From the IMG/VR virus record IMGVR_UViG_3300045988_093513, positions 4,841 through 68,840 of that record: a stretch of 64,000 nt of DNA; one strand, 5' to 3'. Every line of letters begins with the position of its first letter. The first letter of the stretch is position 1. The stretch comes from a virus. This document shows, piece by piece, positions 9,627 through 63,091 of this stretch. A program made the translations under genes and the position numbers. The notes under the pieces are model-generated. The model did not search any database and was not told the DNA's origin. It was given only the letters and a program-made list of their open reading frames with translations.

Positions 9627-10140
9627 CTTCTCTTACACAGTAAATATTATCCCTATAGTTATAACCCAAGACAACTATGTGACTGTTATCTTGATTGAAA
9701 AAATTATGTAACCACTTCTTACGCTTATCCTCTTTCTCAACTATGTTTATCTTGCCGCCACACAAGTAAGTCAAGAAAGCATCATCACTCATCATGTAAC
9801 AGAAACCTTTGTAGTGATAGCAGTCTACGCTTGGTAACTCATTGAAGAGTTTCTCGTGCGTAGACATATGCTTACATTCAATAAGGTACTTCTCATCCTT
9901 AATCTCCACCTGTAAATCAGCCGCTAAGCTATTCCGCAGGCAAGGGATTAAACAGTTGGACTTGAGTGCGCCACTCATTGGTGTCTTGTAAACTGGCAAA
10001 CCCATGGCAATCATTCGAGCCAGCACTCTACGTTCAAACGTCCTACCACTACGTCGGTTTCGCTTACCCGTTGCGACTCTTAGCGGGTCCTTTCGGCGAA
10101 CCATATGTATACTCCTCTCCAAGATAATCAAAATAATCAT
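9580..10140 (-). CDS. Putative PD-(D/E)xK nuclease (Holliday-junction-resolvase-like)
   Basis: A basic N-terminus is followed by 'ADLQVEIKDEKYLIECKH', a D...E-x-K catalytic pattern. Confidence 0.4.
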   Translation of the reverse strand: MIILIILERSIHMVRRKDPLRVATGKRNRRSGRTFERRVLARMIAMGLPVYKTPMSGALKSNCLIPCLRNSLAADLQVEIKDEKYLIECKHMSTHEKLFNELPSVDCYHYKGFCYMMSDDAFLTYLCGGKINIVEKEDKRKKWLHNFFNQDNSHIVVLGYNYRDNIYCVREDVYDIFYNCRKAKGV

Positions 10141-10588
10141 ATACTTCGTTATCCTTGAGTGCGTATAGAGCCATTAAATCATATACGATGCAGTCGATAA
10201 GTTTATCTTCTACATCCTTACAGTAAACGCCATTACGAAGAATAGCAATATCATTCTTGTCTTTCATCGTGATGATGGTACGGAATAATTCATCCCTTGT
10301 TGGCATCCTACCTACACGTCTTACAGCCGCGTCATATACAGCGTCAAGTACATTACCTTTACCTACGTATTCTTCACCCTTAATTACAATCTTGTCAAGG
10401 ATATCGTCAAACAGTCTCGCAACGAAGTCGTAATACACATACAAATCATTCGGTACTTCAGTCTCGCCGTTCTCGTCGTCAACCATACCATCGTTCGGGT
10501 TCCCCTTCGTCTTACAAAGGCTCGCAATAGCTGGTGCTAACATAATCATTAACCTCATGTATTCCTGCTTATTCATTTGTATTAGCAT
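10064..10588 (-). CDS. Hypothetical protein
   Basis: 174-aa ORF. Confidence 0.5.
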   Translation of the reverse strand: MLIQMNKQEYMRLMIMLAPAIASLCKTKGNPNDGMVDDENGETEVPNDLYVYYDFVARLFDDILDKIVIKGEEYVGKGNVLDAVYDAAVRRVGRMPTRDELFRTIITMKDKNDIAILRNGVYCKDVEDKLIDCIVYDLMALYALKDNEVYDYFDYLGEEYTYGSPKGPAKSRNG

Positions 10589-10799
10589 TCCCCTTTCTCT
10601 TTCCAGTATACTTATTAAGAACTCTTACAACGTCTGCTACTTCTTCGTTGTCTTCGATACCGAGCATCGTCAGAAGTCCACCGACCAATACCTGCGCAGC
10701 ATCGTTACCATCCACGTTGGTATCAAACGAGATGTACGCACTACCATCTTCTGCATCTTTCCACGTCACTGTTACTGTTTTAGTTGATGTATCCTTCAT
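10569..10799 (-). CDS. Hypothetical small protein
   Basis: 76-aa ORF. Confidence 0.4.
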   Translation of the reverse strand: MKDTSTKTVTVTWKDAEDGSAYISFDTNVDGNDAAQVLVGGLLTMLGIEDNEEVADVVRVLNKYTGKRKGNANTNE

Positions 10800-11040
10800 G
10801 TTTATGTTCTCCTTTGTTCTTAAATTCTTCTACCATATCAGCCATTGTTTCAAAGATTTTGGTAGCTTCTTCTTCTGTCATTTCGTATGTTGCCATCAGA
10901 GCAAGGAACAATGCAGTAGCAGTCACCGGCGTATCCACGTCAGAGTCTACTTTGATATCTACTCCCTGTTTAGAAAGCACAGCCTTTACCTTAATATTCA
11001 TTGTTGTTTCGTCTTTAAGTTTACTCGTTACGTTATCCAT
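10780..11040 (-). CDS. Hypothetical small protein
   Basis: 86-aa ORF. Confidence 0.4.
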   Translation of the reverse strand: MDNVTSKLKDETTMNIKVKAVLSKQGVDIKVDSDVDTPVTATALFLALMATYEMTEEEATKIFETMADMVEEFKNKGEHKHEGYIN

Positions 11041-11041
11041 T

Positions 11042-11959
11042 TTATATCTCCTTTATGTTTGCATATGGGCATTTATCTTTTACGTTACAGAACCTCTCAC
11101 ATTTCATACCTCCCCAACGCTCTCTGTAACTACACTGCTTTGGGAGTAGCCCTGTCTCCATTGCGTGTACTAAGTTGTCTGCTTTCGCTTTCATATATTT
11201 GCTAACCCAGTGGTCGCTAATCTTGTTTACCTCTACCAGATAGGCTGGTTGCATAACGCCACGGGATTCAGCCATGTAAGTATTACCATCTCGAACAATC
11301 ATCTCACATATCATCTTCTTAGCTGTCTTGCCAAGACACTTCTTTAGCTTCATGCGATAATCATTCAGCTGTATTGCGAGGTCAAGTCTACCGCTACCAT
11401 GTACTCCATCATATGTGAAGTATGTTCTATACTTTGGTTTACCATTCTTGTATAAACCAATCTGCTCCTTATGCTTTACAGCGCCAAGAACCTTGGCTGC
11501 TTTGTAACTGCCATATGTTTTATCGTCGTACAGGTAGCCAGTGTTTTCCTCGTCTGTTGCTTCTTCATCGAAATAGTCAAACGCACCAGTAGAAACCCCG
11601 TCGTCTAACCGTTTCTCCGTCATTGCGTTTCCTTCTGTGTTTTCTTCCAGTGCTTCATGTATTGCAGTACCGTGTAGTGCGAACACCGACTGCATCGGGT
11701 CAATCGTATATGGCTCTGTAAGCTTCAAGTATTCTTCCAGTGTACCGTTAAGTAACTGTGTCGTACTGGGCTTCCCAGTCCATCTACGTTCAGCGGCGAT
11801 AGCAAGTAGTGCTCTCCTAGATAAGCATCGACCGCATGGTACATACAGCATACCAGTTGTAGGGTTCAGCTTACCCTCTAACCGGCAATGTTTTAAGCAC
11901 TCGTTCACAGGACATTCTCTTCCGTCTGGACATCTAAAATGTGTAAGTGGCATTAGCAT
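11042..11959 (-). CDS. Putative Cas4/RecB-family exonuclease with an Fe-S cysteine cluster
   Basis: N-terminal cysteines (CPDGRECPVNECLKHC) plus a C-terminal C-x3-C-x5-C (CERFCNVKDKC) match the four-Cys arrangement of Cas4/AddB nuclease domains. It carries 'GRLDLA' and 'EVNK' motifs and sits next to a primase-helicase and an annealing protein. Confidence 0.4.
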   Translation of the reverse strand: MLMPLTHFRCPDGRECPVNECLKHCRLEGKLNPTTGMLYVPCGRCLSRRALLAIAAERRWTGKPSTTQLLNGTLEEYLKLTEPYTIDPMQSVFALHGTAIHEALEENTEGNAMTEKRLDDGVSTGAFDYFDEEATDEENTGYLYDDKTYGSYKAAKVLGAVKHKEQIGLYKNGKPKYRTYFTYDGVHGSGRLDLAIQLNDYRMKLKKCLGKTAKKMICEMIVRDGNTYMAESRGVMQPAYLVEVNKISDHWVSKYMKAKADNLVHAMETGLLPKQCSYRERWGGMKCERFCNVKDKCPYANIKEI

Positions 11960-13938
11960 TCACCTTCGCAATCTTCTAACACGCTCTTGTCTCTGTTCCA
12001 CTTCATCATGAATCTAGTAGAGCCTAACTGATAACCTCTAACTTTCGCAAGATTAAATCGTGTGATACCGTGCCATTTCTGCTCTGCCTCAAGGCCAATC
12101 CCTGGTCTTAAGTCTGGTCTCCACATGAGTAAACAGATGTCGGCACTCGCTTCAATGTCACCAGCCCCTTTCAGTAAATTCATTGTTGGTTCTTCGTACT
12201 GATTACTCTGACGATTCAACTGACTCAGCATTACGAATATTAAGTCTTTGTCTTTTGCGATTCTCTTCATCGCCTTTGCCTGCTGAGCAGCACCATCATA
12301 CTCTTCAGTACCTTTCAGATATTGGAAGTAGTCACAGACAACCATGTCAACTGGCCTATCGAACAATCCCTTGGCATTAATAGCTGAGATAGTTCTGTCA
12401 ATCTCATCCATGGTTACTCCGTTCTTATCTATAATTATAAGCCTATTTCCAATTTTGTCAAGTTGTTTTTTTATCTCTGCGGAATCTGTAAAGTATTCTC
12501 GTACTTTGTAGAACGGACAGCCGATCAACTTAGCCAGTATCCATTCAAGTACATTACCTTTACTCATCTCCTGCGAAAAGAATACAACTCGCATATCATT
12601 ATTTAAAATACTCTTTAAAATATAGTCGATAGCGAAAGAAGTTTTACCGCTTCCGCTATACGCTCCCACGACAACCACCTGTCCTTTCATGATACCACCA
12701 ACACAGGTATCAATACCAGTAATACCAGTCTTGAATATTCCTTTTTCGTACAACTTACCAAGGTCGCCCAAGCAGTCGTACAACGTAGCCGCATTGTCGG
12801 TTAATGTATCTACTTCTTCTACGTCAAGGTCAAACGCTTCTTTCAAATCTGTTACGTCTTTGCCCCAACGCTTAGCTAAAATATCAATCAAGTCTGCCTT
12901 TACCATCTGGCTCTTTACAGTTTTCATAAACTCTGTAGCATATGAATACTGGTCCTCAATGGAATTACATTCATCCAACTTACGGACAAGAACAAACTGG
13001 TCGATATATACTGTCTGTAACGCTTTAACATCTACGCCATTGACTAGCGCATCGTTCATATCCTTACACCCATCGGGTAAAGGACAAACCCTTACGTTAA
13101 AATTTGTTATACTATTGAACCTATCACGAACTCTGTCGATATGTTTCAACCCAGGTTCGTCCATATCTGGTACAAGTATAATCTGCGTGTTGGGTGGAAC
13201 CGTTCTATTCAATAGCTGAATCTGTTCCTTGCCAATTTCCGCTCCACAATATCCGGCGGTAGGTAATCCCATTTCGGTACCAGACATTACGTCAAAGTAT
13301 CCTTCCACCAGATAAAGAACATTACCACCAACCTTGCGAGATACATTCAATCCGTACAGTGTTTCACTCTTATCAAACACTTCACTGTTCTTTGAGTTCT
13401 TGTACTTATATTTCGCATTGAAGTACCGTTTAGCGATAGCTACTGGCTGGTCATTAACATTGTAAATAGGAATAACCAAACTACCGGACGCCTGCTTATC
13501 TGCTCCGAGATGGAATAGCTTAGCTACATCTTCTCCAATCTTTCTCTTACGCAGATAATCTTTAAGCTCTTCGTTTGATTCAAGATTGCGGCTGGCTGTT
13601 ACCACTCTATGTCTATAGGCTTGAATCAAATCTCTCTGCCTTACATATTCTACATTAGTTGATACGTCAATGTTCAACATATCAGCTAGCTTTTCAGTAG
13701 CGGCTTCGTATGTTACGTGCTCGTATTCAGCAACAAAGTTAATTACATTGCCGCAAGCACCGCACGAAAAGCAATAGAATGTTCCGTGCGGAAATACGGT
13801 AAATGCAGAAGCATTCTCTCCGCCATGGATTGGACAAACGCCTCTCCACGTGTTGCCTGTTCTCTTGAGTGTTGTGTACTGACTAACATAATCTGCCAAA
13901 TCTACTTTCGCTTTAATAACACTTTCGAGATTACTCAC
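11953..13938 (-). CDS. Bifunctional DnaG-like primase / DnaB-like helicase (T7 gp4-type)
   Basis: N-terminal CHC2 zinc finger 'CPIHGGENASAFTVF...CFSCGACG', a TOPRIM-region, then Walker A 'GAYSGSGKTSFA' and Walker B 'MVVCDYFQYL'. Confidence 0.85.
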   Translation of the reverse strand: MSNLESVIKAKVDLADYVSQYTTLKRTGNTWRGVCPIHGGENASAFTVFPHGTFYCFSCGACGNVINFVAEYEHVTYEAATEKLADMLNIDVSTNVEYVRQRDLIQAYRHRVVTASRNLESNEELKDYLRKRKIGEDVAKLFHLGADKQASGSLVIPIYNVNDQPVAIAKRYFNAKYKYKNSKNSEVFDKSETLYGLNVSRKVGGNVLYLVEGYFDVMSGTEMGLPTAGYCGAEIGKEQIQLLNRTVPPNTQIILVPDMDEPGLKHIDRVRDRFNSITNFNVRVCPLPDGCKDMNDALVNGVDVKALQTVYIDQFVLVRKLDECNSIEDQYSYATEFMKTVKSQMVKADLIDILAKRWGKDVTDLKEAFDLDVEEVDTLTDNAATLYDCLGDLGKLYEKGIFKTGITGIDTCVGGIMKGQVVVVGAYSGSGKTSFAIDYILKSILNNDMRVVFFSQEMSKGNVLEWILAKLIGCPFYKVREYFTDSAEIKKQLDKIGNRLIIIDKNGVTMDEIDRTISAINAKGLFDRPVDMVVCDYFQYLKGTEEYDGAAQQAKAMKRIAKDKDLIFVMLSQLNRQSNQYEEPTMNLLKGAGDIEASADICLLMWRPDLRPGIGLEAEQKWHGITRFNLAKVRGYQLGSTRFMMKWNRDKSVLEDCEGEC

Positions 13939-53254: not shown

Positions 53255-54216
53255 TTACGGCGCAACGGTTGGAGTAATAGTCTCCACGACAACTGGTTTC
53301 GGGTTAACCTTACCAGTCAGGTTCTTAATACGAGCGTTAGCATTCGGTGCGGTACATTCGATAGATGCTACGCCAGTGATTACCTTTTCCTTATAAGTAC
53401 CGACTCTCGGCGGTTCTTCAGTATGGAACGGAATAAGGTAGCCAAGTTTCCAATACTGCGGGTCGAGCAGGTCAACCACATCGTCAGAGTACATACGATG
53501 GGCTTCCAGACGAAGAGAACCAAAGTCAGTCTCGATGATTTCGAGAGAGGTGGTGATACTCTTGTCACCTGCCTGGCGAATCGGCAGTGCACCCTGAGTA
53601 AAGTCGGCGCATCCACGCTTATTACGTGCGGACATAATAGCGACGGACGGGTCGCCACCACGCTGCCAGGTCAGCTGCATTGCGTCATTCAGAAGGTCGA
53701 AAGTAAGGTTGCCCTTAGCAACGTCCTTCGCTGCGTCAATGCAGTTCTGGAATGTGATGGAGCCCATCTTAGTTTCTTTAACTTTACCTTCACCGCTGGA
53801 AACACCATGACCATTTGCGTCATACTTGACGGAGTTCATAGCGCCTTCCGGAGTGTCATACAGATAGAACGTATTAGCGTCCTTAACTGCTACGTAGTAG
53901 GCAACGTTTTCTTTACATACAGCACCACCACGAACGATGAGGGCATCGCCGTTTACAAAGCCGTGGTCGTTCAGAGTGAACTCACCAAAAGCTACGGTTA
54001 CACCTTTCAGTTCATCTTCAAGGAAGTACGGAATACCACCAAAAGTACCAGCAACGTTTTCAGACATCGGGGTTGCAGTGGTGTTGTTTACGATAGCATA
54101 TTCAAGGTCACCTGCGATTTCCTTGCCAGCCTTAACGAACTGGTACGCTACTTCGTCACGAACACCGTACTTTTTGATAGCCTGAGTGATATCAGAGATG
54201 TTATCGTTTGTGTTAA
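53255..54216 (-). CDS. Major capsid protein, 3' exon (the frame continues upstream of the annotated Met with no start codon)
   Basis: The in-frame upstream sequence 'VNTNDNISDITQAIKKYGVRDEVAYQFVKAGKEIAGDLEYAIVNNTTATP' precedes MSEN, and there is no ATG or RBS. A TGA lies at 54218-54220. The gene sits after the scaffold gene in a portal-scaffold-capsid order. Confidence 0.6.
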
Positions 54217-54972
54217 CTCATACTTTCATATGAGACCAGACTATATTATACTTAATCGGTGTTATCGTATAGTCGTTGGGATTTCATACGCTTTTCACAG
54301 TAATTATTTAACCTTTTCTGTTTACGTAAAATATTGAACTTTAGTCCAGATTCTATAAATGACTTTAGGTTCATAGTGAAACTCAGTTGTACTTTGTTTT
54401 TGGTTCGTATTTCTCTTGTCTTACCACACGATACACCAAAGGATTGTAGCATCCTTTTTATATCGTATGTCCAAGAGTATGTAGTTCCGTACCCCATCAT
54501 CCAATTTGTATTACCATTTGGATTGGCACGCTGTGAGACCCAACCATCAGAATCAAGTACACCTTCTAAAAATTCTTTCTTTAACTCTTTGTCCCATTGA
54601 TACACATAGTCTGGGATGTATCTACATCCAGCTGTGTCATCAACGAATATCTTAAATTCTTTAGAACATACTTGAAGATAGTATTTGTTAGTCCCTACCC
54701 TTTGGTGGACTTTCACATCTCTATTGATAAAACGTGATAAGTAATCAGCAACTTTACCAATAAACTCTTTATCAATACATTCAAATGAGTATGCGTACGT
54801 GTTCCCTCTTTTGAAAACACTAGCATCTCCAAAGTAACAACCAAGTAAATAAGCGTATGTCTTATCTGCGGGTTTCCTATTCATAATACATATCCTTTCT
54901 ATTTTTACACTTTGGTAAGAAGGGCTTTAAGGGTTTCCTGCATATGGATAACTTTTATATGGGCAAACATTT
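54217..54972 (-). mobile_element. Putative group I intron interrupting the capsid gene (boundaries approximate)
   Basis: Proposed 5' exon ends in U after ...CATGGG; proposed intron ends in G before TTAACACAAAC. It carries a free-standing LAGLIDADG ORF. Confidence 0.5.
54252..54884 (-). CDS. LAGLIDADG homing endonuclease (double-motif), intron-encoded
   Basis: Motif 1 'AYLLGCYFGDASV' and motif 2 'FLEGVLDSDGWVS'. Confidence 0.8.
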   Translation of the reverse strand: MNRKPADKTYAYLLGCYFGDASVFKRGNTYAYSFECIDKEFIGKVADYLSRFINRDVKVHQRVGTNKYYLQVCSKEFKIFVDDTAGCRYIPDYVYQWDKELKKEFLEGVLDSDGWVSQRANPNGNTNWMMGYGTTYSWTYDIKRMLQSFGVSCGKTREIRTKNKVQLSFTMNLKSFIESGLKFNILRKQKRLNNYCEKRMKSQRLYDNTD

Positions 54973-55302: not shown

Positions 55303-56048
55303 TTATACGCCAAGCTCTTTCGCAAACCTAGATACGTATGCCGCCTGTTGGTCGTTAGTCATCTGACCAAGCGCAGCGTAGTCCATAGTTTTCTGTGCCT
55401 GTGGCATTGCACCACGGTTATTTGTCGGTTCGACATACGGTGGACGTACCTGCGGCTGGACAGGCCGAGGCATAGGCTGCGGAGCCTGCTGTGGCTGGTT
55501 GCCACGATGATAATACATATTCGATACGGCCTGCATGTAATTGTCAAGCACTTCCGCGTTACCAGTCTTGAGAGCGTCCTGTACTTCCACATACATTTTG
55601 TACGGGAGGTTCTGGAGACTACTCAGAGCGAGCTGGTTAATCGTGTCGAAGTTCGGGTCTTGTCTGTATTTATTAGCAACAGATGCAATTCTTTGAGAAG
55701 CAGCTGCCTTTTCGGCTTCCTGCTGTTTCATTTCGTTAACCCTCTGTAGGGTGGCTGCTTTGACATTACCAACTTCATTGACATATGCTGCCATATGTTT
55801 ACTGTTGTACTCGTCAAAATCTTCACCAAAGAGCTGTTTAACTCGGTCTTTGCAATACGTATCAACCTGGTCGAGGTACGCTCTCTGGTCAGCCATAGCA
55901 CGCTGCTGTACTTCTTCTGGGGACATCTGCGGCTGCTGGGGCTGAACATTCTGGGGCTGAGGGTTGTTCGCAAACTGCTGCATCATCATCTGTCGCTGCT
56001 GTTCGAGAGCCTGACGCTGAGCTGCGAGTTCCTGTGTTTTCCTAGTGT
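55303..56048 (-). CDS. Scaffolding protein, Q-rich C-terminal part (annotated ATG at 55989 plus a ~20-codon in-frame upstream extension)
   Basis: There is no SD before the ATG at 55989. Upstream in-frame 'DTRKTQELAAQRQALEQQRQ' continues the Q-rich repeat pattern up to the TAA at 56050-56052. Confidence 0.5.
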
Positions 56049-56332
56049 CTTAACCTTCGAGTAAAGTCGTTAATTTTACCCCGTCATTCCACAGGAGAAT
56101 GACTGCTGCATATTTCTATGCAGAAGAGACTATTTCTTCACCTTCTCCTTTCAGAGGTCAGGTGTCTGGCACTTCCGTCCACTTGGACGTACTCCCTGCA
56201 ACGGGATAGTCGTTACGGGTTCCCAGCATAGCTGGGCTTCCCACGAGATTGCCCTCGTCTTTACGTTAGGGTGTTCCTCGTTTTCACCAGATTTAAATCA
56301 AGGATTTCTCCAAGAAGTGACCTATTTTGTTA
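56049..56332 (-). mobile_element. Possible ORF-less group I-like intron in the scaffold gene (boundaries approximate)
   Basis: A ~285-nt ORF-free, GC-enriched spacer containing at least four stable hairpins (cccagc/gctggg, cgtcca/tggacg, ctgcat/atgcag, cattc/gaatg). The exons on each side look like halves of one scaffold protein. Confidence 0.35.
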
Positions 56333-56672
56333 AGTCAGCCTGTCGCATATAACCATTACGCATTTCATCCATAGAAACCTGTACGTCCTGTCCATCTACA
56401 CGGACAGTCTGCATTTCCGGCTGCGGCTGTGGTACTTCCTGCGGCTGTTCTTGGACGGGTTCTGGTTCATCATCATAGTCGCCTGTCGGTTCTCCGAAAA
56501 AGGCGTCGGCAAAAGTGACGTCCCCGTTCTCGTCAATACCAAATGCAGGTTCATCAGCGTCATTGTTCTGCGGTGCAGTCTGCGCATCCGGTGTTTCCAC
56601 TGGCGCAGTTGTTGCAGGAACAGGTTCCTGAGCTGGTTCTACCATTGGCATTCCGTTCTGCATTTCTTCCAT
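56322..56672 (-). CDS. Scaffolding protein, acidic N-terminal part (start at MEEMQNG; SD AAAGGAGG)
   Basis: SD AAAGGAGGAATTT precedes the ATG at 56672. The protein is acidic and P/Q-rich. The longer ORF-track call begins upstream of the SD. Confidence 0.55.
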   Translation of the reverse strand: MEEMQNGMPMVEPAQEPVPATTAPVETPDAQTAPQNNDADEPAFGIDENGDVTFADAFFGEPTGDYDDEPEPVQEQPQEVPQPQPEMQTVRVDGQDVQVSMDEMRNGYMRQADLTK

Positions 56673-56789
56673 AAATTCCTCCTTTTTGCACTCCGTAAAG
56701 GTTGGTGCAGTAAAATATATATACGCCAATAACCATGCAAAATTTGTTCGTTAAATAACGAGGTTTTACACGGTTTTGACGAAATTAAC

Positions 56790-56865
56790 TGGCACGGATT
56801 GCTAGAATCGAACTAGCGAATTGCTGGGTCAAAGCCAGCCGCCTTCACCACTTGGCTAAACCCGT
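56790..56865 (-). tRNA. tRNA-Gln (anticodon UUG), with CCA encoded
   Basis: Hand-folded cloverleaf. Acceptor stem ACGGGTT/AATCCGT has one G.U pair. U8 and A9 are present. D-arm is GCC-aagtggtgaa-GGC with G18/G19. Anticodon stem is GCTGG/CCAGC with loop CTTTGAC. T-arm is GCTAG-TTCGATT-CTAGC. Discriminator is G, then CCA. Confidence 0.8.
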
Positions 56866-56886: not shown

Positions 56887-57723
56887 CTACCTATTATTCT
56901 GGTTGTATGCACGCAATGCATTAAATCCACGGATAAGTGGGTCGTGTTCATCGTGATATGCAGACGGGTTTGCATCCCTGTATGTCTGAGCATCAAGCTG
57001 ATAATAGTCAGCAGGGCTAGGCTGTGCATAAGCGTTATCCATAGCGTAGTAGTCTGCTACGGAATTACCTGGCATATCGAAGCCTTCAGAAGAACCAGTG
57101 GAACCAGAGTCATCTGGTACACCAAGCGCCATAGCATCCTGAGCAGCTGCCGGTCCATAGTTCTGCCGCATAGCAGCTTCATACTCCATCTGCTTACGAA
57201 GTTTTTCTCTTTCATACGCTTCATACTGAGCCTGTGTATGGTCGATACCACCATTGTTTACAAGGTATTCATGCATACCCCAGTTCATCGGTGTCTTATC
57301 ACGGTTAGCAATTTGTTCGTCTGTCCATCCTGCGTCTTTCATAAGCTGAATACCTCTATCGTTGATAGTATCGCCAGTATTAGCATATGTCAGCGGTGCA
57401 TTAGGTGTACCAGAAGGTAAATTACGTGTAGCAAATTCATAAGAACCGGCCTTAGGTGTCGGCTTCAGCTGACTACCGTTATCGATAGCTGCCTGCCCAC
57501 GGTTAGCGGACCGTACCCAAGCGTTACTATCATCACGGGTCGGTGCCATAAACCTATTACGAATACGTTCACGCTCTTTGTCATATTCAGACATGGGAGC
57601 GTTTTCCTGTGCAGTTGGCGTACTGCCATGAATCTGATTGTAAACATCTGTGAGAGCTTTAGCTGCTTCATATCTTTGAACATCCGCCTGTCGAGGGATA
57701 CTCCTCGTATACTTAATTGCCAT
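56887..57723 (-). CDS. Hypothetical head protein (between the portal and scaffold genes)
   Basis: 278 aa; start overlaps the portal stop. Confidence 0.55.
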   Translation of the reverse strand: MAIKYTRSIPRQADVQRYEAAKALTDVYNQIHGSTPTAQENAPMSEYDKERERIRNRFMAPTRDDSNAWVRSANRGQAAIDNGSQLKPTPKAGSYEFATRNLPSGTPNAPLTYANTGDTINDRGIQLMKDAGWTDEQIANRDKTPMNWGMHEYLVNNGGIDHTQAQYEAYEREKLRKQMEYEAAMRQNYGPAAAQDAMALGVPDDSGSTGSSEGFDMPGNSVADYYAMDNAYAQPSPADYYQLDAQTYRDANPSAYHDEHDPLIRGFNALRAYNQNNR

Positions 57724-60700
57724 TAATAACCTCCTACTCCATTAGTCGGTTCAGCAGGTGCGCCATTAGGAACCCTATTATCGGCTGGCTGCTGACCAAT
57801 TTGTTTGTCTGGAGAGAGGGCGTCACTACCTTGTCGCACAGTAGAAGTGACCGCTCCTCCTGCTCCTTGTGGTGCAGATACATTCTGCATAGGAACCGTA
57901 CTCTGACCAGTGTTGTTTGTATTTGTTGGTAACGTATGATTCAAGAATACTACCTGCACATAGGGGGGGAGTGAGTAGAGAACCTGAATCGGTAACGAGC
58001 CATACTGGAAGTAGTAAGCCACAACATCAGGGGGGAGAGTCTGAAGTGTTGCCTGAATGATTTGTGCTTCAAGCATAGTACGCTGTTGCGCAACAACAGG
58101 GTCAGTAATATAGTCACCTGTATTTTTAATACCCATATTTTCCATCCAACGTTTCGTGATGTTATAAATGTTATGTGGAGTTGCAACCGCAACACCAGTA
58201 GCGTTTACTTGCATGATAGCAGTCATGAGCGTCTGAAGCTGGGTATTCATAGCTTCTTTACTCTGGATGGAGAGACCAGCGTTTACAACCAGATCGAAAG
58301 AGCCAGACAAGTCATCTGGTTTGATTTCCATTGGTTCCCCTGTTAATCGAATAACAGTGTTTTGGTCAATAAACTTTTGGTTCAAAGATATAAGAAAACG
58401 ATATAGTTCATATACACCCGTTTCAGCAAACATACGAGCAATAAGTTCCAGTCGCTGATTAGATGCATTCATGATGGTATTGATACCGCTTGCTGTGTTA
58501 TGTGTTACGGTATAGTGTTTGCCTACGCAGAACTGACCATCTTCGGCATCAACAGTTAAACACCGCATTGGAATAATATCGGTCGGTTCGATTAATACTA
58601 TTTTAACCCTATCAACACTACGTTTAGACTGTACATACTTGTTTGCTTTTCGGCTTAATCTAAATGGATTATCGAGGCAACTAATAGTTAAATGCCAATA
58701 TGTACGACCTTCTTTAGCTAACTTGCCAGGGAATTGCTCTGACTTAGAATAATTCCAGCCAAAGGAACAAATCAAGCGTTCTACATCGTCCAATAACTGC
58801 CCGTTTGCTTGAGAGAAAATAGCCAACGAACCAGAATGGTGACAACCATCAGTGTCCATAAGTCCACGAAGAAGTTCCATACGCTGTCTATAAGAAGCAC
58901 TAAAGAAAATCTCCGGTATGTGTTTACAGTTATCTTTCATGTCGTCGTATCTTGCATCGCGGGCAATGTGTAGTTTTCTAAGGATGGTGTGCAAGTCTGT
59001 GCCAACTATGTCATACGTAATAGCCTTTCCTGCGTTTTGGTGTGAAGACGGTCTGATAAAACCACCTCTGAACTTTGCCCATTCGGACATGGCGTCCACT
59101 ATTTCTTTATCCATTGAGGTAAAGCGATTGGTGTGTAAGCAGCCGTCGCCCAAGAACACACCGAGGATATACGGGTCTATTGGTAATTCAATATCACCGT
59201 TGTTATCAGGACGGTATACCCTGTCAATAAACAATGGCTGTTTATACTTGTGCGCCAACTGGAACAAAGTGTCGGTATCAATGGTTTTACGTTTCCTATG
59301 AGGGCCAAACACTGTCCACAAATGTTCTCCGCCCGCTTTAAGGACTTCGCCGTTAGAGAACTTGATTTCATATGCTCGTTCTGGGTCATGAATAGTATGG
59401 GCTTTAATAACCATGGTCGGTTTACCATTCTGCCCAACAATCATATCACCGTCAACAATGTCTTTTAACAGCTTACTGGAACCGTTGGCCATCGGGACAG
59501 GCGTATTGATGTCTAGCATTTTATTCAAACTGGAAGCATCAAGACCTTGGTTATATCGCGTGACGCCTGTACGCTGTTCCTTCTGTCCCTCAGTCCATTC
59601 GAGAAAGTTGAACGTATAAGGAGCAATCTGGTTGACAGGCATAGACATTGCAACGTCATTCATCTGATACCCTGGCTTCTTACGAATGACGGCACGACCT
59701 TTGTTGAAGTCATCAACATTGATTGCGTCTGGTGCCAGAATCATCTTAGGGTCATTCGTCAGTGCTAGGTTGTGGATAATCTGACGAATCAGTGCCACCT
59801 TCAAATTCTGGATTTCACCAACGAGTTCGGCATAAGAACGCTTAGACCAAATACGGTGTGGGTCTTGTGTCGGGGAAATAGCGAAGAATGGATGTCTACC
59901 CATATAGTTTGGTTCGCAACGAAGGATATGGTCTTGGCACAGTGTGATAATCATATCCTCAAGGATACCATCACCATTAATATCAATTTTCGTATAACAC
60001 TCGTACAGAGTAACCTCTTCACGGGCTTCTTCTGCGGCAGAGTGGAAACCATAGTATTGATCGCCAAGCACCTCTTCCATTTCTGTATCAGCTTCATCGA
60101 GTCCGTATTTTGAGTGCCAATGCTCTGACTTTATCTCATCAACGTTAGCATATACGCCCTGTCGTTCCATCTTTCTGAGGTAAGACATAGTAACCCGTTT
60201 CTTATGAGCAACAAAGTTTGCTTCATCAAGAGTTTTTGCGTCTGGCGAATACAAGAAATCAGAAATAAGAATGTTCTCAATCTTTGGAGCATTCTTCAAA
60301 TAAAACGTGGAGTCGTAAATAACAGTATAATCGCCATACTTATCGGGGGCAGAGATAGATTCGACCTTTACACCAGTGTTAATCAGGGCTTGTAAGCTCT
60401 GAAAGTTGAGAACACACTGTACAGGTTCATAGCCCTCCTCTCTGTCCCAGTAACATTTAACAACACCAAGACCAGTAATGAGTGCATCTTTCATCCAATT
60501 ATACAGAATCGGGTAGAAATGGTTCTGTCTCTGTAACTGGAAAGAAATAAGGTCTTGCATAATCTCTGCGTTATGGTCATCCTGCGCATCTACACCAGAG
60601 ATACTGATTACACTCTCCCCGCCGGTAAATACCTTCATGAGCGATGGCAATGCCCATTCAATAGTATCTGTTACATCGGTAGATACTATAGATGATGTTT

Positions 60701-60770
60701 TACTAAGCTTTGGGAACATCTTTTTGTAATATTCTTTATCGGCAAAGTAAATCTGATATCGCTCTTTCAT
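57723..60770 (-). CDS. Portal protein carrying a ~328-aa LAGLIDADG intein
   Basis: Portal-like N- and C-terminal regions with an inserted intein (see the mobile_element entry). The annotated ATG lacks an SD, and a strong SD lies 114 nt upstream in frame. Confidence 0.75.
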   Translation of the reverse strand: MKERYQIYFADKEYYKKMFPKLSKTSSIVSTDVTDTIEWALPSLMKVFTGGESVISISGVDAQDDHNAEIMQDLISFQLQRQNHFYPILYNWMKDALITGLGVVKCYWDREEGYEPVQCVLNFQSLQALINTGVKVESISAPDKYGDYTVIYDSTFYLKNAPKIENILISDFLYSPDAKTLDEANFVAHKKRVTMSYLRKMERQGVYANVDEIKSEHWHSKYGLDEADTEMEEVLGDQYYGFHSAAEEAREEVTLYECYTKIDINGDGILEDMIITLCQDHILRCEPNYMGRHPFFAISPTQDPHRIWSKRSYAELVGEIQNLKVALIRQIIHNLALTNDPKMILAPDAINVDDFNKGRAVIRKKPGYQMNDVAMSMPVNQIAPYTFNFLEWTEGQKEQRTGVTRYNQGLDASSLNKMLDINTPVPMANGSSKLLKDIVDGDMIVGQNGKPTMVIKAHTIHDPERAYEIKFSNGEVLKAGGEHLWTVFGPHRKRKTIDTDTLFQLAHKYKQPLFIDRVYRPDNNGDIELPIDPYILGVFLGDGCLHTNRFTSMDKEIVDAMSEWAKFRGGFIRPSSHQNAGKAITYDIVGTDLHTILRKLHIARDARYDDMKDNCKHIPEIFFSASYRQRMELLRGLMDTDGCHHSGSLAIFSQANGQLLDDVERLICSFGWNYSKSEQFPGKLAKEGRTYWHLTISCLDNPFRLSRKANKYVQSKRSVDRVKIVLIEPTDIIPMRCLTVDAEDGQFCVGKHYTVTHNTASGINTIMNASNQRLELIARMFAETGVYELYRFLISLNQKFIDQNTVIRLTGEPMEIKPDDLSGSFDLVVNAGLSIQSKEAMNTQLQTLMTAIMQVNATGVAVATPHNIYNITKRWMENMGIKNTGDYITDPVVAQQRTMLEAQIIQATLQTLPPDVVAYYFQYGSLPIQVLYSLPPYVQVVFLNHTLPTNTNNTGQSTVPMQNVSAPQGAGGAVTSTVRQGSDALSPDKQIGQQPADNRVPNGAPAEPTNGVGGY
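58497..59480 (-). mobile_element. Intein with LAGLIDADG endonuclease domain in the portal protein
   Basis: N-terminal Ser, block B 'GEVLKAGGEHLW', LAGLIDADG motifs 'LGVFLGDGCL' and 'LLRGLMDTDGCH', and C-terminal 'TVTHN' followed by a Thr +1 residue. Confidence 0.65.
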
Positions 60771-60924
60771 GGTGGGAATGATAACAGCATTCTGGTAATC
60801 TTCTGCTTCTCTGATATCTGACTTAACGATGTCAATAATGCTATCGTTCAGGTCACTGATATCAGTAATCTTTTCATTATCTATTTATATTACCTCCTTT
60901 CATTGACTCCTAGATATATAAGAA

Positions 60925-62383: not shown

Positions 62384-62659
62384 TTACACCCCTTTCTTCA
62401 AACTTTCTAGGATAAAACGGGCGAATTGGTCCATACAACTGGTGTTTCTTTTCCCACATTTGTGTCCCAGAAACATAATTGCAACAGTTTTAGCGTCTTT
62501 TCCGTCTAAAATCTTGGCGATGGCAGATAAATTACCCTGACAACCGCCGGTAAAGGAAATATTTTTAAGCTTCCCGTTGATAATATCGAATGAAACTTCT
62601 TTACTACATACGTTATTTGGTTTATAAGTGTACATTTTACCCCTCATATTACCCCTCAT
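62384..62659 (-). CDS. Standalone TSCPD-domain protein (start at the first of three tandem SD-ATG units)
   Basis: 'FTGGCQGNLSAIAKIL...LGHKCGKRNTSCMDQFARFI' matches the TSCPD pattern GGC.G...Ai..l...C....SC.Dq.A. SD AGGAGGGG lies 7 nt before the ATG at 62659. Confidence 0.65.
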   Translation of the reverse strand: MRGNMRGKMYTYKPNNVCSKEVSFDIINGKLKNISFTGGCQGNLSAIAKILDGKDAKTVAIMFLGHKCGKRNTSCMDQFARFILESLKKGV

Positions 62660-63091
62660 ATTACCCCTCCTAAGTAATATAAGAATAGATAAAGATAGAG
62701 ACACAGAGATATATGGAGATTCCTTATTGAGAACGTATGTAAATACCGTTATATATTCTTCTTGAGACTTTCAACATATGTAAATACCGTTATATATCTT
62801 TCTTGAGACTTGCATCTACGCCGTCCCGTACGACTATGGACGCCCCAGACTGAAGCCCCACCCCCACAGTGGGGGGTAGGCAGGGTGTGTAGGCGTGGTG
62901 TCTGGAGGCGACTGTATGATAAATATTATATACGTTGACATTCTACACTTGAACATACATAGTGACTGGGGGATTATACCCTTTTTTACTGCCAAAAAAA
63001 TTACAGGTTAACAATCCGCACTTGAACGTACATAGTGATACAGGAAAGGAAATATCTTTCCCTTATTATGCCGATGTTTATCGGCGTGGTT

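Follow-up and report, generated by a model that had tools for sequence, protein, structure and literature searches.

The portal gene and its insert

The window, meaning the whole 64,000-nucleotide stretch of DNA that was analysed, belongs to a ~69-kb human-gut phage that carries an intein in its portal gene. The features of the gene are collected in Table 1. The 1015-aa portal ORF reported by the initial annotation was recovered and matched Pfam SU10_portal (PF23899) with an E value of 1.2e-143 and 480 bits (cutoff 30) over profile positions 29–584, the match being broken by a large insert. An in-frame extension upstream raised this match to 492 bits and positions 2–584; because of this improvement, the true start of the portal probably lies upstream of the called ATG, at about 60884. 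The PDB portals 9nwm (Pa223) and 7sxk can be aligned to the sequence that flanks the insert on either side. The papers on the SU10 and Pa223 portal structures give no residue numbers for the insertion region, and the insertion site was not placed in three dimensions by an AlphaFold monomer model of the spliced portal (P0002 with 23 homologues), which had a mean pLDDT of 41.6. No match to the portal gene was returned by megablast against 50,697 phage genomes, and tblastn of deposited phage genomes found only portals of up to 30% identity, none of which covered 80% or more of the precursor.

Table 1. Coordinates of the portal gene, the intein and its motifs (positions in the window; a slash marks a splice junction)
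Feature	Motif	Position	Strand	Residues	Remarks
Portal precursor ORF		57723..60770	(-)	1015 aa + stop	Called from first ATG; SU10_portal match
N-extein coding region	ends ...DASSLNK	59520..60770	(-)	ORF aa 1-417	Lys417 is the -1 residue
Intein		58497..59519	(-)	1023 bp / 341 aa, Met1...Asn341	Hint domain split by LAGLIDADG homing endonuclease domain
Intein block A	MLDINTPVPMANG	59481..59519	(-)	intein aa 1-13	Aligns to residues 1-13 of 6bs8 and 6rix
Intein block B	GEVLKAGGEHLW	59316..59351	(-)	intein aa 57-68	His66 (B10), Trp68 (B12)
LAGLIDADG motif 1	DPYILGVFLGDGC	59139..59177	(-)	intein aa 115-127	Catalytic Asp D125, 60/61
Endonuclease block D	CKHIPEIFF	58902..58928	(-)	intein aa 198-206	Conserved Lys K199, 61/61
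LAGLIDADG motif 2	MELLRGLMDTDGC	58842..58880	(-)	intein aa 214-226	Catalytic Asp D224, 61/61
Intein block F	IPMRCLTVDAEDGQFCV	58524..58574	(-)	intein aa 316-332	Cys320 (F4); aligns to vPvRCveVD of 6bs8/6rix
Intein block G and +1 residue	HYTVTHN/T	58494..58517	(-)		Thr339 (G5), His340, Asn341, Thr+1
C-extein coding region	begins TASGINTIMNASNQRLE...	57723..58496	(-)	ORF aa 759-1015 + stop

The limits of the insert were read from empty-site alleles, using an intein-free reference set of at least eight clusters of 674-aa portals in which Lys and Thr are joined directly. Members of this set (P0002–P0007, P0009 and P0011) are 93–97% identical and read ...DASSLNK/TASGIN...; since the two residues are contiguous in these homologues, the intein comprises Met418–Asn758 of the 1015-aa ORF. 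In DNA alignments, a clean 1023-bp insertion was seen between AAA (Lys) and ACG (Thr), and this indel recurs between the same two codons in three lineage pairs that are independent of one another (window/L001, L005/L007 and L002/L003). The site lies within the motif RTGVTRYNQGLDASSLNK/TASGI, nearly all residues of which are invariant among portal homologues of at least 60% identity.

That a LAGLIDADG intein interrupts the portal, as first proposed, is borne out by every test made: the empty-site alleles, the fold with its Hint and LAGLIDADG parts, and the conservation of splice residues. The block B and the two LAGLIDADG motifs listed in that proposal were found at ORF aa 474–485, 532–544 and 631–643, and its 3' boundary of 58497 was right, with TVTHN followed by Thr+1 at ORF aa 754–759. 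Alignment of the exteins to the intein-free portals showed the 341-aa insert to be precisely absent from the 93–97% identical homologues. The N-terminal boundary had to be moved: a start at Ser431 (58497–59480) had been given, and comparison with intein-free homologues places it 13 residues earlier. The measured insert is accordingly 341 aa rather than ~328 aa by the 1023-bp indel, and the homologous intein-free portals are 674 aa, not the ~685 aa predicted after removal of the insert. The 13 residues formerly given to the extein, MLDINTPVPMANG, are intein block A and align with residues 1–13 of class 3 DnaB-1 inteins; counted from Met418, Ser431 is residue 14 of the intein, and 49 of 61 homologous inteins have a gap in its column. 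For structural models and mass-spectrometry searches, the mature portal should thus be taken as 674 aa from the called ATG with a K417–T759 junction, the predicted junction peptide after splicing being ...YNQGLDASSLNK/TASGINTIMNASNQR.

Fold, splicing residues and intein class

An AlphaFold2 model of the intein had a mean pLDDT of 92.5 and a pTM of 0.89. By Foldseek against the PDB, the best match was PI-SceI (E 8e-18, TM 0.72), with the TliVMA and PI-PfuI inteins next; the DnaB, Prp8 and gp41-1 inteins were also matched. The Hint part superposes on class 3 DnaB inteins with an rmsd of about 2 Å, and the endonuclease domain matches I-DmoI. When the PDB was searched with phmmer, the Hint part was closest to 6rix/6riy (MchDnaB-1) and 6bs8 (E 5.5e-9 to 7.7e-7), the latter entry being titled 'The class 3 DnaB intein from Mycobacterium smegmatis' (solved class 3 DnaB-1 relatives: PMC7664689). 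Met418 of the window ORF pairs with chain residue 1 of the solved DnaB-1 inteins, and ...RC..VD...THN pairs at the C terminus. Of the Pfam profiles, LAGLIDADG_3 scored above its cutoff at ORF aa 630–697 (26.9–30.5 bits against 22.5), Hom_end_hint was matched weakly and below cutoff (17.6–19 bits against 32.1), and no intein-splicing model fired. The LAGLIDADG_3 score, the PDB intein hit and the Foldseek match to PI-SceI are too strong to have arisen by chance. Intein-containing families were sub-threshold only in an NCBIfam search.

Splicing residues were compared across 61 homologous inteins, which are 25–98% identical and reside in many host proteins. Position 1 is Ala in 33, Gly in 15, Met in 10 and Asp, Gln or Ser in one each, with Cys or Thr in none; Met, the non-nucleophilic residue at this position of block A in the window intein, is thus a minority state (10/61). 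Further along block A, T6 is kept in 60/61 and G13 in 59/61. The block B His (B10) is found in all 61, and the residues of the WCT triplet are kept almost without exception (Trp 61/61, Cys 60/61, Thr 60/61), the His and Trp columns of block B being invariant in alignment A1. At the C terminus, His is present in 58 and Asn in all 61, followed at +1 by Thr (32), Ser (26) or Cys (3). In the window intein, the triplet is formed by W68 (B12), C320 (F4) and T339 (G5), after which come H340, N341 and Thr+1. Position 7 of its block B is Gly and not the usual Thr or Ser; the residue at this position is dispensable in the class 3 prototype (PMC2807308).

Class 3 inteins are defined by a missing N-terminal nucleophile, a WCT triplet at B12/F4/G5 and Ser or Thr, rarely Cys, at +1; the triplet co-varies with the lack of an N-terminal nucleophile, and the role of the block F4 Cys is established (PMC2807308). 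The window intein shows all three: its position 1 is not Cys, Ser or Thr, it has the WCT triplet, and Thr follows at +1. The canonical blocks and starting Ser originally described give way here to Met at position 1, with no N-terminal nucleophile, and to the triplet. The general marks of an intein are also in place, namely an in-frame insert absent from orthologues, a Hint fold and His-Asn followed by Thr+1, and the Cys, Ser or Thr at position 1 that would identify class 1 is replaced by Met. By analogy, Cys320 (F4) is predicted to be the initiating nucleophile. Class 2 (KlbA-type) inteins have neither an N-terminal nucleophile nor a WCT triplet, and in them Cys+1 attacks directly; this class was ruled out, since the window intein has the triplet and Thr at +1. 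We read 58497..59519 (-) as encoding a class 3 intein of 341 residues that lies in frame between Lys417 and Thr+1 of an SU10-type portal, with a probability of about 0.9.

The class 3 prototype MP-Be DnaB, from mycobacteriophage Bethlehem (PMC2807308), shares the missing N-terminal nucleophile, the WCT triplet, Thr+1, a LAGLIDADG domain and phage origin. By the numbering of that paper and through homologues, its His65, Trp67, Cys320, Thr339 and Asn341 correspond to His66, Trp68, Cys320, Thr339 and Asn341 of the portal intein; it differs in its host, the P-loop of a DnaB helicase, and in having Pro1 after Gln(-1) where the portal intein has Met1 after Lys(-1). MsmDnaB1 (6bs8) and MchDnaB1 (6rix/6riy) (PMC6195587, PMC7664689) are 26–29% identical to the portal intein Hint part, with an rmsd of about 2 Å over 80–85 columns, and show the same pattern at their termini (xLxxxTPxPxxxG ... 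RCxxVD ... THN). These are, however, bacterial mini-inteins (PDB chains of about 139–146 aa) in the DnaB P-loop, without an endonuclease domain. The two-domain Hint and LAGLIDADG architecture is shared with PI-SceI (VMA1) and other endonuclease-bearing inteins (1vde, 1lws, 7qsu and 1dq3), which differ in being class 1 inteins with Cys1, of 425–454 aa, only 12–16% identical and with an extra DNA-recognition region. The nearest non-portal relatives, at 28–36% identity over 341 aa, are class 3 inteins of phage and metagenome TerL, Cas4-like exonucleases, helicases and dCTP deaminases; the WCT triplet, Lys at -1 and Ser or Thr at +1 are held in common with these, whereas their insertion sites are GK/[ST] P-loops or D[YF]K/... 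nuclease motifs.

Portal inteins as such have been described before, and the window intein is not made novel by rarity alone. Those of cluster C1 mycobacteriophages and other actinobacteriophages (PMC5050341; bioRxiv 10.1101/2025.01.02.630785) are likewise sporadic in a phage portal gene, although portal family and hosts are unrelated. Both surveys bear out the expectation that inteins are less often found in portals than in terminases: only six portal inteins were listed in mycobacteriophages, most inteins being in terminase large subunits (PMC5050341), and 293 of 784 actinobacteriophage inteins were in terminase large subunits (bioRxiv 10.1101/2025.01.02.630785). Class 3 inteins occurred in only four extein types in the latter survey, which suggests, though the survey does not say so, that its portal inteins are class 1.

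Endonuclease domain and distribution of alleles

The central domain has the make-up of a two-motif monomeric LAGLIDADG endonuclease, with both motifs, D125 and D224, and with Foldseek matches to I-DmoI and to the endonuclease domain of PI-SceI. In alignment A1, the columns of motif 1 are invariant or nearly so, as are K204 and P207 (A1 numbering) of block D, both invariant. Values of dN/dS were 0.027–0.056 for the endonuclease domain and 0.008–0.063 for the Hint parts, the endonuclease being as low as the portal exteins. Judged from sequence, both motifs are intact, each with its catalytic Asp, as is the Lys of block D, and the endonuclease is under purifying selection.

Presence of the intein is polymorphic. 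Three phage lineages each have intein-plus and intein-minus alleles at the identical site, and the intein is carried by ~37 of the ~420 member sequences in the group of at least 93% identity. The exact precursor protein was found on at least six ~68.9-kb contigs from different samples, human gut metagenome included. Identities of intein and exteins are discordant. Between lineages, intein allele A is 84% identical in nucleotides and 91% in amino acids, with exteins at 64–71% and 72–77%, respectively; allele B (L005) is 61% (nucleotides) and 62% (amino acids) identical, with exteins 80–82% identical in nucleotides. In an NJ tree (no support values), the portal inteins group as a clade of their own. 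From the pairwise identities and this unsupported tree, we infer that the intein may have been transferred horizontally between lineages; such transfers would not be very recent, because allele A differs by 16% of nucleotides between them. When co-conversion tracts were sought in the extein DNA beside the junctions, no clear pattern emerged, and the window holds no direct repeats of 60 bp or longer. A recent jump from the adjacent terminase found no support, as the TerL of the window (483 aa) has no intein and the portal inteins are a deep clade, at most 36% identical to TerL inteins. Near-isogenic phages with no intein or with either of two diverged alleles of it offer a natural system for the study of homing dynamics.

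Several other accounts of the insert were weighed against these data. It could be a class 1 intein of 328 aa that begins with an N-to-O acyl shift at Ser431 and leaves a ~687-aa portal retaining MLDINTPVPMANG. Ser431 and Ser432 do follow directly on ...PMANG, Ser is an accepted class 1 nucleophile and a C-terminal HN/T occurs in all classes, yet this model is refuted by the empty-site alleles: intein-free homologues have no MLDINTPVPMANG and are 674, not 687, aa long. These 13 residues align as Hint block A with the first 13 of solved inteins, the Ser column is mostly gapped among homologues and reads Thr-Trp in allele B, and the co-variation of WCT with a missing N-terminal nucleophile (PMC2807308) also argues against it; we give it practically no credence. 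A self-splicing group I or II intron, with an endonuclease ORF in frame and removal at the RNA level, would suit the presence of two group I introns within 4.5 kb, one of them with a LAGLIDADG ORF. Its probability is nevertheless negligible: no Rfam family reached its gathering threshold over 58497–59519, the ORF runs unbroken into both exteins, the ends of the insert code for Hint blocks A, B, F and G within a confidently predicted Hint fold, and in all three lineages the insertion is a multiple of three in length and lies on codon boundaries. The insert might instead never splice, and be either an accessory domain that stays in the portal for good or a dead intein that a surface loop tolerates, as Hint-like domains that do not splice (BIL domains) are known. 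This we hold to be highly improbable, given that the insert breaks an essential portal motif near-invariant down to 60% identity and is missing from 97%-identical portals, that H66, W68, C320, T339, H340, N341 and T+1 are all present and kept at a dN/dS of ~0.02, and that the phage circulates in several samples.

The remaining alternative accepts class 3 splicing and supposes that the LAGLIDADG domain no longer cuts, the intein being inherited only vertically or the domain being kept for folding or another role. Decayed endonucleases are common in inteins, and both the 16% nucleotide divergence of allele A and the lack of an evident co-conversion tract at the junctions would fit. Against this stand the intact catalytic Asp pair and block D Lys, kept in 60–61 of 61 homologues, an endonuclease dN/dS of 0.03–0.06 that is as low as that of the portal exteins, sporadic presence in three lineages and an intein identity exceeding extein identity, which together make loss of cutting unlikely.

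Proposed splicing and homing

For the class 3 reading with a functional endonuclease, a splicing pathway was modelled by homology on inteins that have been characterised (MP-Be DnaB, Dra Snf2 and Msm/Mch DnaB-1). Translation would give a portal precursor of at least 1015 aa, after which the Hint domain would fold. With Met as its first residue, the intein would rely on the internal Cys320 of block F, aided by His66 and Trp68 of block B, to attack the peptide bond between Lys(-1) and Met1 and give a thioester branched intermediate. The N-extein would then pass to the side chain of Thr+1, Asn341 would cyclise with the help of His340 to release the intein, and an O-to-N shift would join the exteins seamlessly into a portal of 674 aa (counted from the called ATG), able to form the dodecamer. 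The central residues, about 200 in number, are predicted to act as a two-motif LAGLIDADG homing endonuclease cutting intein-free alleles (...TTGAATAAA/ACGGCAAGCGG...) during co-infection, whereupon repair of the cut portal allele would copy the intein in. The empty-site DNA of L001 reads CAAGGGCTTGACGCTTCCAGCTTGAATAAA/ACGGCAAGCGGTATCAATGCTATCATG.

The class 3 DnaB-1 intein of M. smegmatis is sensitive to oxidative stress (PMC6195587). By analogy, and because a near-invariant motif is interrupted and splicing would rely on a single internal thiol, Cys320, splicing could conceivably act as a redox- or condition-sensitive checkpoint gating portal maturation, and hence procapsid assembly, in a phage whose hosts are anaerobic bacteria of the gut; we regard this as a long shot. 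Were it so, the coexistence at the same codon of intein-free alleles and two 62%-identical intein alleles could reflect balancing selection and not simple homing.

The window intein is of a well-documented and ordinary class 3 type, and current understanding stands. Class 3 inteins are best known from P-loop ATPases and Cas4-like nucleases; to this host range is added a clade that is fixed at a single position in the SU10-type portals of phages from the human gut. The two group I introns mentioned above lie in the adjoining scaffold and capsid genes. Together with the intein, they make the phage head module a region densely colonised by selfish elements, because of which automated pipelines split or mis-size head genes.

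Boundaries of the portal intein

The 1015-aa ORF was identified as an SU10-type portal (Pfam PF23899, E 1.2e-143), the match spanning residues 12–903 and being broken by a large insert. In phmmer searches against the PDB, the portal of Pseudomonas phage Pa223 (9nwm) and 7sxk aligned to ORF residues 23–416 and again from residue 757/758 to 916, with a target gap of only 1–2 residues between the blocks; this two-block alignment indicates an insertion of ~341 aa that starts well before the Ser previously proposed as intein residue 1.

The extein, spliced at the predicted junction, was used to query 5.8 billion proteins. Intein-free portals of exactly 674 aa and 93–97% identity (homologues P0002–P0007, P0009, and P0011) were recovered, together with an intein-free portal with a longer N-terminus (P0001) and intein-bearing portals of 1015–1060 aa (P0008, P0010, P0012, P0013, and P0016). 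With the junction marked by a slash, the intein-free homologues read ...RYNQGLDASSLNK/TASGINAIM... and the intein-bearing ones ...DASSLNK/MLDINTPVPMANG...HYTVTHN/TASGIN.... At the DNA level, a clean 1023-bp indel, flanked by a Lys or Arg codon on one side and ACG (Thr) on the other, was seen in three independent pairs of lineages (window/L001, L005/L007, and L002/L003; L numbers denote loci of related phages). The intein–portal junction is unambiguous, and removal of the intein leaves a mature portal of 674 aa. The intein sits within RTGVTRYNQGLDASSLNK/TASGI, a motif in which almost no residue varies among 24 portals with identities as low as 60%; inteins are typically located in motifs of this kind.

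The initial annotation, a LAGLIDADG intein in the portal, was right in kind, as borne out by the intein-free 674-aa alleles, the fold, and the splice residues. The motifs it quoted (PMANG, GEVLKAGGEHLW, two LAGLIDADG motifs, and TVTHN/T) were all found where described, and its 3′ end, 58497, coincides with the empty-site junction. Its 5′ end, 59480, falls 39 nt short of that given by the intein-free homologues and the indel (59519); the lengths of ~328 aa for the intein and ~685 aa for the spliced portal become 341 and 674 aa, respectively. The Ser is intein residue 14, in a column gapped in 49 of 61 sequences.

The in-frame stretch upstream of the called ATG encodes the conserved portal N-terminus (...IVKSDIREAEDYQNAVIIPT), also found in P0001 and P0008, and when it is added the SU10_portal match begins at profile position 2 instead of 29 and scores 492 rather than 480 bits. 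No ATG, GTG, or TTG occurs within this stretch, but an ATA codon (60882..60884) is preceded, at a distance of ~7 nt, by a strong AAAGGAGGT Shine–Dalgarno sequence. Translation of the portal probably begins at a non-canonical codon upstream of the called ATG, in which case the precursor would be ~1053 aa.

Features of the portal region and other genes of the window
Feature	Coordinates	Strand	Evidence or remark
Portal precursor ORF, 1015 aa	57723..60770	-	ORF call
Upstream in-frame stretch, 38 codons, no stop	60771..60884	-	before called portal ATG
Intein, 341 aa, ORF Met418..Asn758	58497..59519	-	empty-site homologues and 1023-bp indel
Lys at position -1	59520..59522		
Group I intron in head-scaffolding gene	56049..56332	-	Rfam RF00028 at 56106..56341, 84.5 bits, E 4.6e-20
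Scaffold gene part	56322..56729		phrog_3927 'head scaffolding protein'
Scaffold gene part	55303..55989		
Insertion in major capsid gene (SU10_MCP), 768 bp	54205..54972	-	absent from intact 418-aa gene of L001
Capsid N-fragment, 102 aa	54971..55279		
Capsid C-fragment, 270 aa	53255..54067		
LAGLIDADG endonuclease ORF in capsid insertion, 210 aa	54252..54884		Pfam E 5.8e-12
tRNA-Gln, anticodon TTG	56790..56865	-	between gene downstream of portal and scaffold gene
ORF, 4034 aa	20018..32122	-	
Small ORF	62384..62704	-	directly upstream of terminase

Splicing class and fold

Intein residue 1 is Met, which is unable to make the acyl shift that begins class 1 splicing. The residues of the class 3 triplet are present as W68 (block B12, GEHLW), C320 (block F4, PMRCLTVD), and T339 (block G5, TVTHN), along with His-66 (B10), His-340, Asn-341, and Thr at +1. 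This Trp/Cys/Thr (WCT) triplet defines class 3 inteins (Tori et al., PMC2807308; repeated in PMC5050341). From portals, terminases, Cas4-like nucleases, methylases, helicase loaders, and dCTP deaminases, 61 homologous inteins (25–98% identical) were extracted. His B10, Trp B12, and the C-terminal Asn were found in all 61, and Cys F4 and Thr G5 in 60 each; position 1 was Ala in 33, Gly in 15, Met in 10, and Asp, Gln, or Ser in one each, and the +1 residue was Thr (32), Ser (26), or Cys (3). Met at position 1 and the WCT triplet correct the mechanistic class, and we put the probability that 58497..59519 encodes a class 3 LAGLIDADG intein at about 90%.

Lys occupies position -1 in 59 of the 61, despite the unrelated hosts (GK/[ST] P-loops, D[YF]K/ nuclease motifs, RAYGK/ methylase, and SLNK/ portal), which suggests that a K/[ST] junction is needed or targeted by this class 3-type family.

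The best PDB sequence matches to the Hint part were the DnaB-1 inteins of M. chimaera (6rix/6riy) and M. smegmatis (6bs8), which are class 3 (PMC7664689 and PDB title). Met-418 of the window ORF pairs with chain residue 1 of these inteins, and at the C-terminus iPmRCltVD...tvTHN aligns with vPvRCveVD...vpTHN. Pfam placed LAGLIDADG_3 at ORF residues 630–697, above cutoff, and Hom_end_hint, weakly, from residue 422. An AlphaFold2 model of the intein with five flanking residues on each side, built from a 50-sequence alignment, had a mean pLDDT of 92.5 and a pTM of 0.89. Its top Foldseek match in the PDB was PI-SceI (E 8e-18, TMq 0.72), followed by the TliVMA, PhoVMA, and PI-PfuI inteins; the DnaB-1 inteins matched the Hint part (26–29% identity, rmsd ~2 Å) and I-DmoI the endonuclease domain.

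Mobility and distribution

The catalytic Asp is kept in both LAGLIDADG motifs (D125 in 60 and D224 in all 61 homologues), as is the block D Lys, K199 (KHIP; 61/61). Nei–Gojobori dN/dS values for the window against L006 or L002 were 0.027–0.056 for the endonuclease domain and 0.008–0.063 for the Hint parts, comparable with the portal exteins (0.025–0.038). Between lineages sharing one intein allele (window, L006, and L002), the intein is 84% identical in nucleotides and 91% in amino acids, and the exteins only 64–71 and 72–77%. A second allele (L005, P0010, P0012, and P0013) differs from the first in its intein (61% nt, 62% aa), whereas the exteins are 80–82% (nt) and 91–94% (aa) identical. In the portal group of at least 93% identity, ~37 member sequences carry the intein versus ~386 that do not; among the matches listed for the 59–62% identity group (~100 clusters, 698–716 aa), none carries it. 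This pattern of presence, absence, and identity is as expected of a homing intein, for which cleavage activity is predicted. The L005 portal (10001..13048) has the identical codon junction and keeps all catalytic residues, and L007 is its near-isogenic intein-free partner (97–99% nt).

The exact 1015-aa protein occurs on at least six contigs of ~68.9 kb, of which one comes from a metagenome of the human gut. Portals ~61% identical carry a Veillonella label in NCBI records, a weak hint that Veillonella may be the host.

Inteins have been described before in the portals of cluster C1 mycobacteriophages (six cases; PMC5050341) and other actinobacteriophages, and in a 2025 survey just four types of extein contained class 3 inteins (both bioRxiv 10.1101/2025.01.02.630785). 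Among 50,697 deposited phage genomes, no record covered at least 80% of the precursor, and all intein matches were at most 33% identical, most of those listed belonging to terminase, exonuclease, and helicase genes. No class 3 intein seems to have been described at this site of an SU10-type portal; the present one is a straightforward addition to the known class. The portal inteins, together with more distant portal fragments such as P0122, formed their own clade in a neighbor-joining tree that carried no support values.

Introns and other genes

Just downstream of the portal, a group I intron breaks the scaffold gene and a probable second one the major capsid gene. The scaffold gene of L005 is unbroken (361 aa); the window has a 284-bp insertion, following a T and ending in G, with no ORF inside. 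In the intein-free relative L001 (13076..14986), the gene is split into 116 aa, a 167-aa NUMOD4/HNH_3 endonuclease ORF, and 228 aa, so some phages have an HNH homing endonuclease in this intron, whereas the window's copy lacks one. The capsid insertion, too, is preceded by a T and has G as its last base; its Intron_gpI match is weak (17.5 bits, E 0.27), and a group I intron containing a homing endonuclease gene is its probable identity. The split capsid gene is also found in L005 and L006. The 4034-aa ORF is very large for a phage genome of ~69 kb, and the small ORF beside the terminase corresponds in relatives (L008, 112..387) to a TSCPD-domain product (PF12637).
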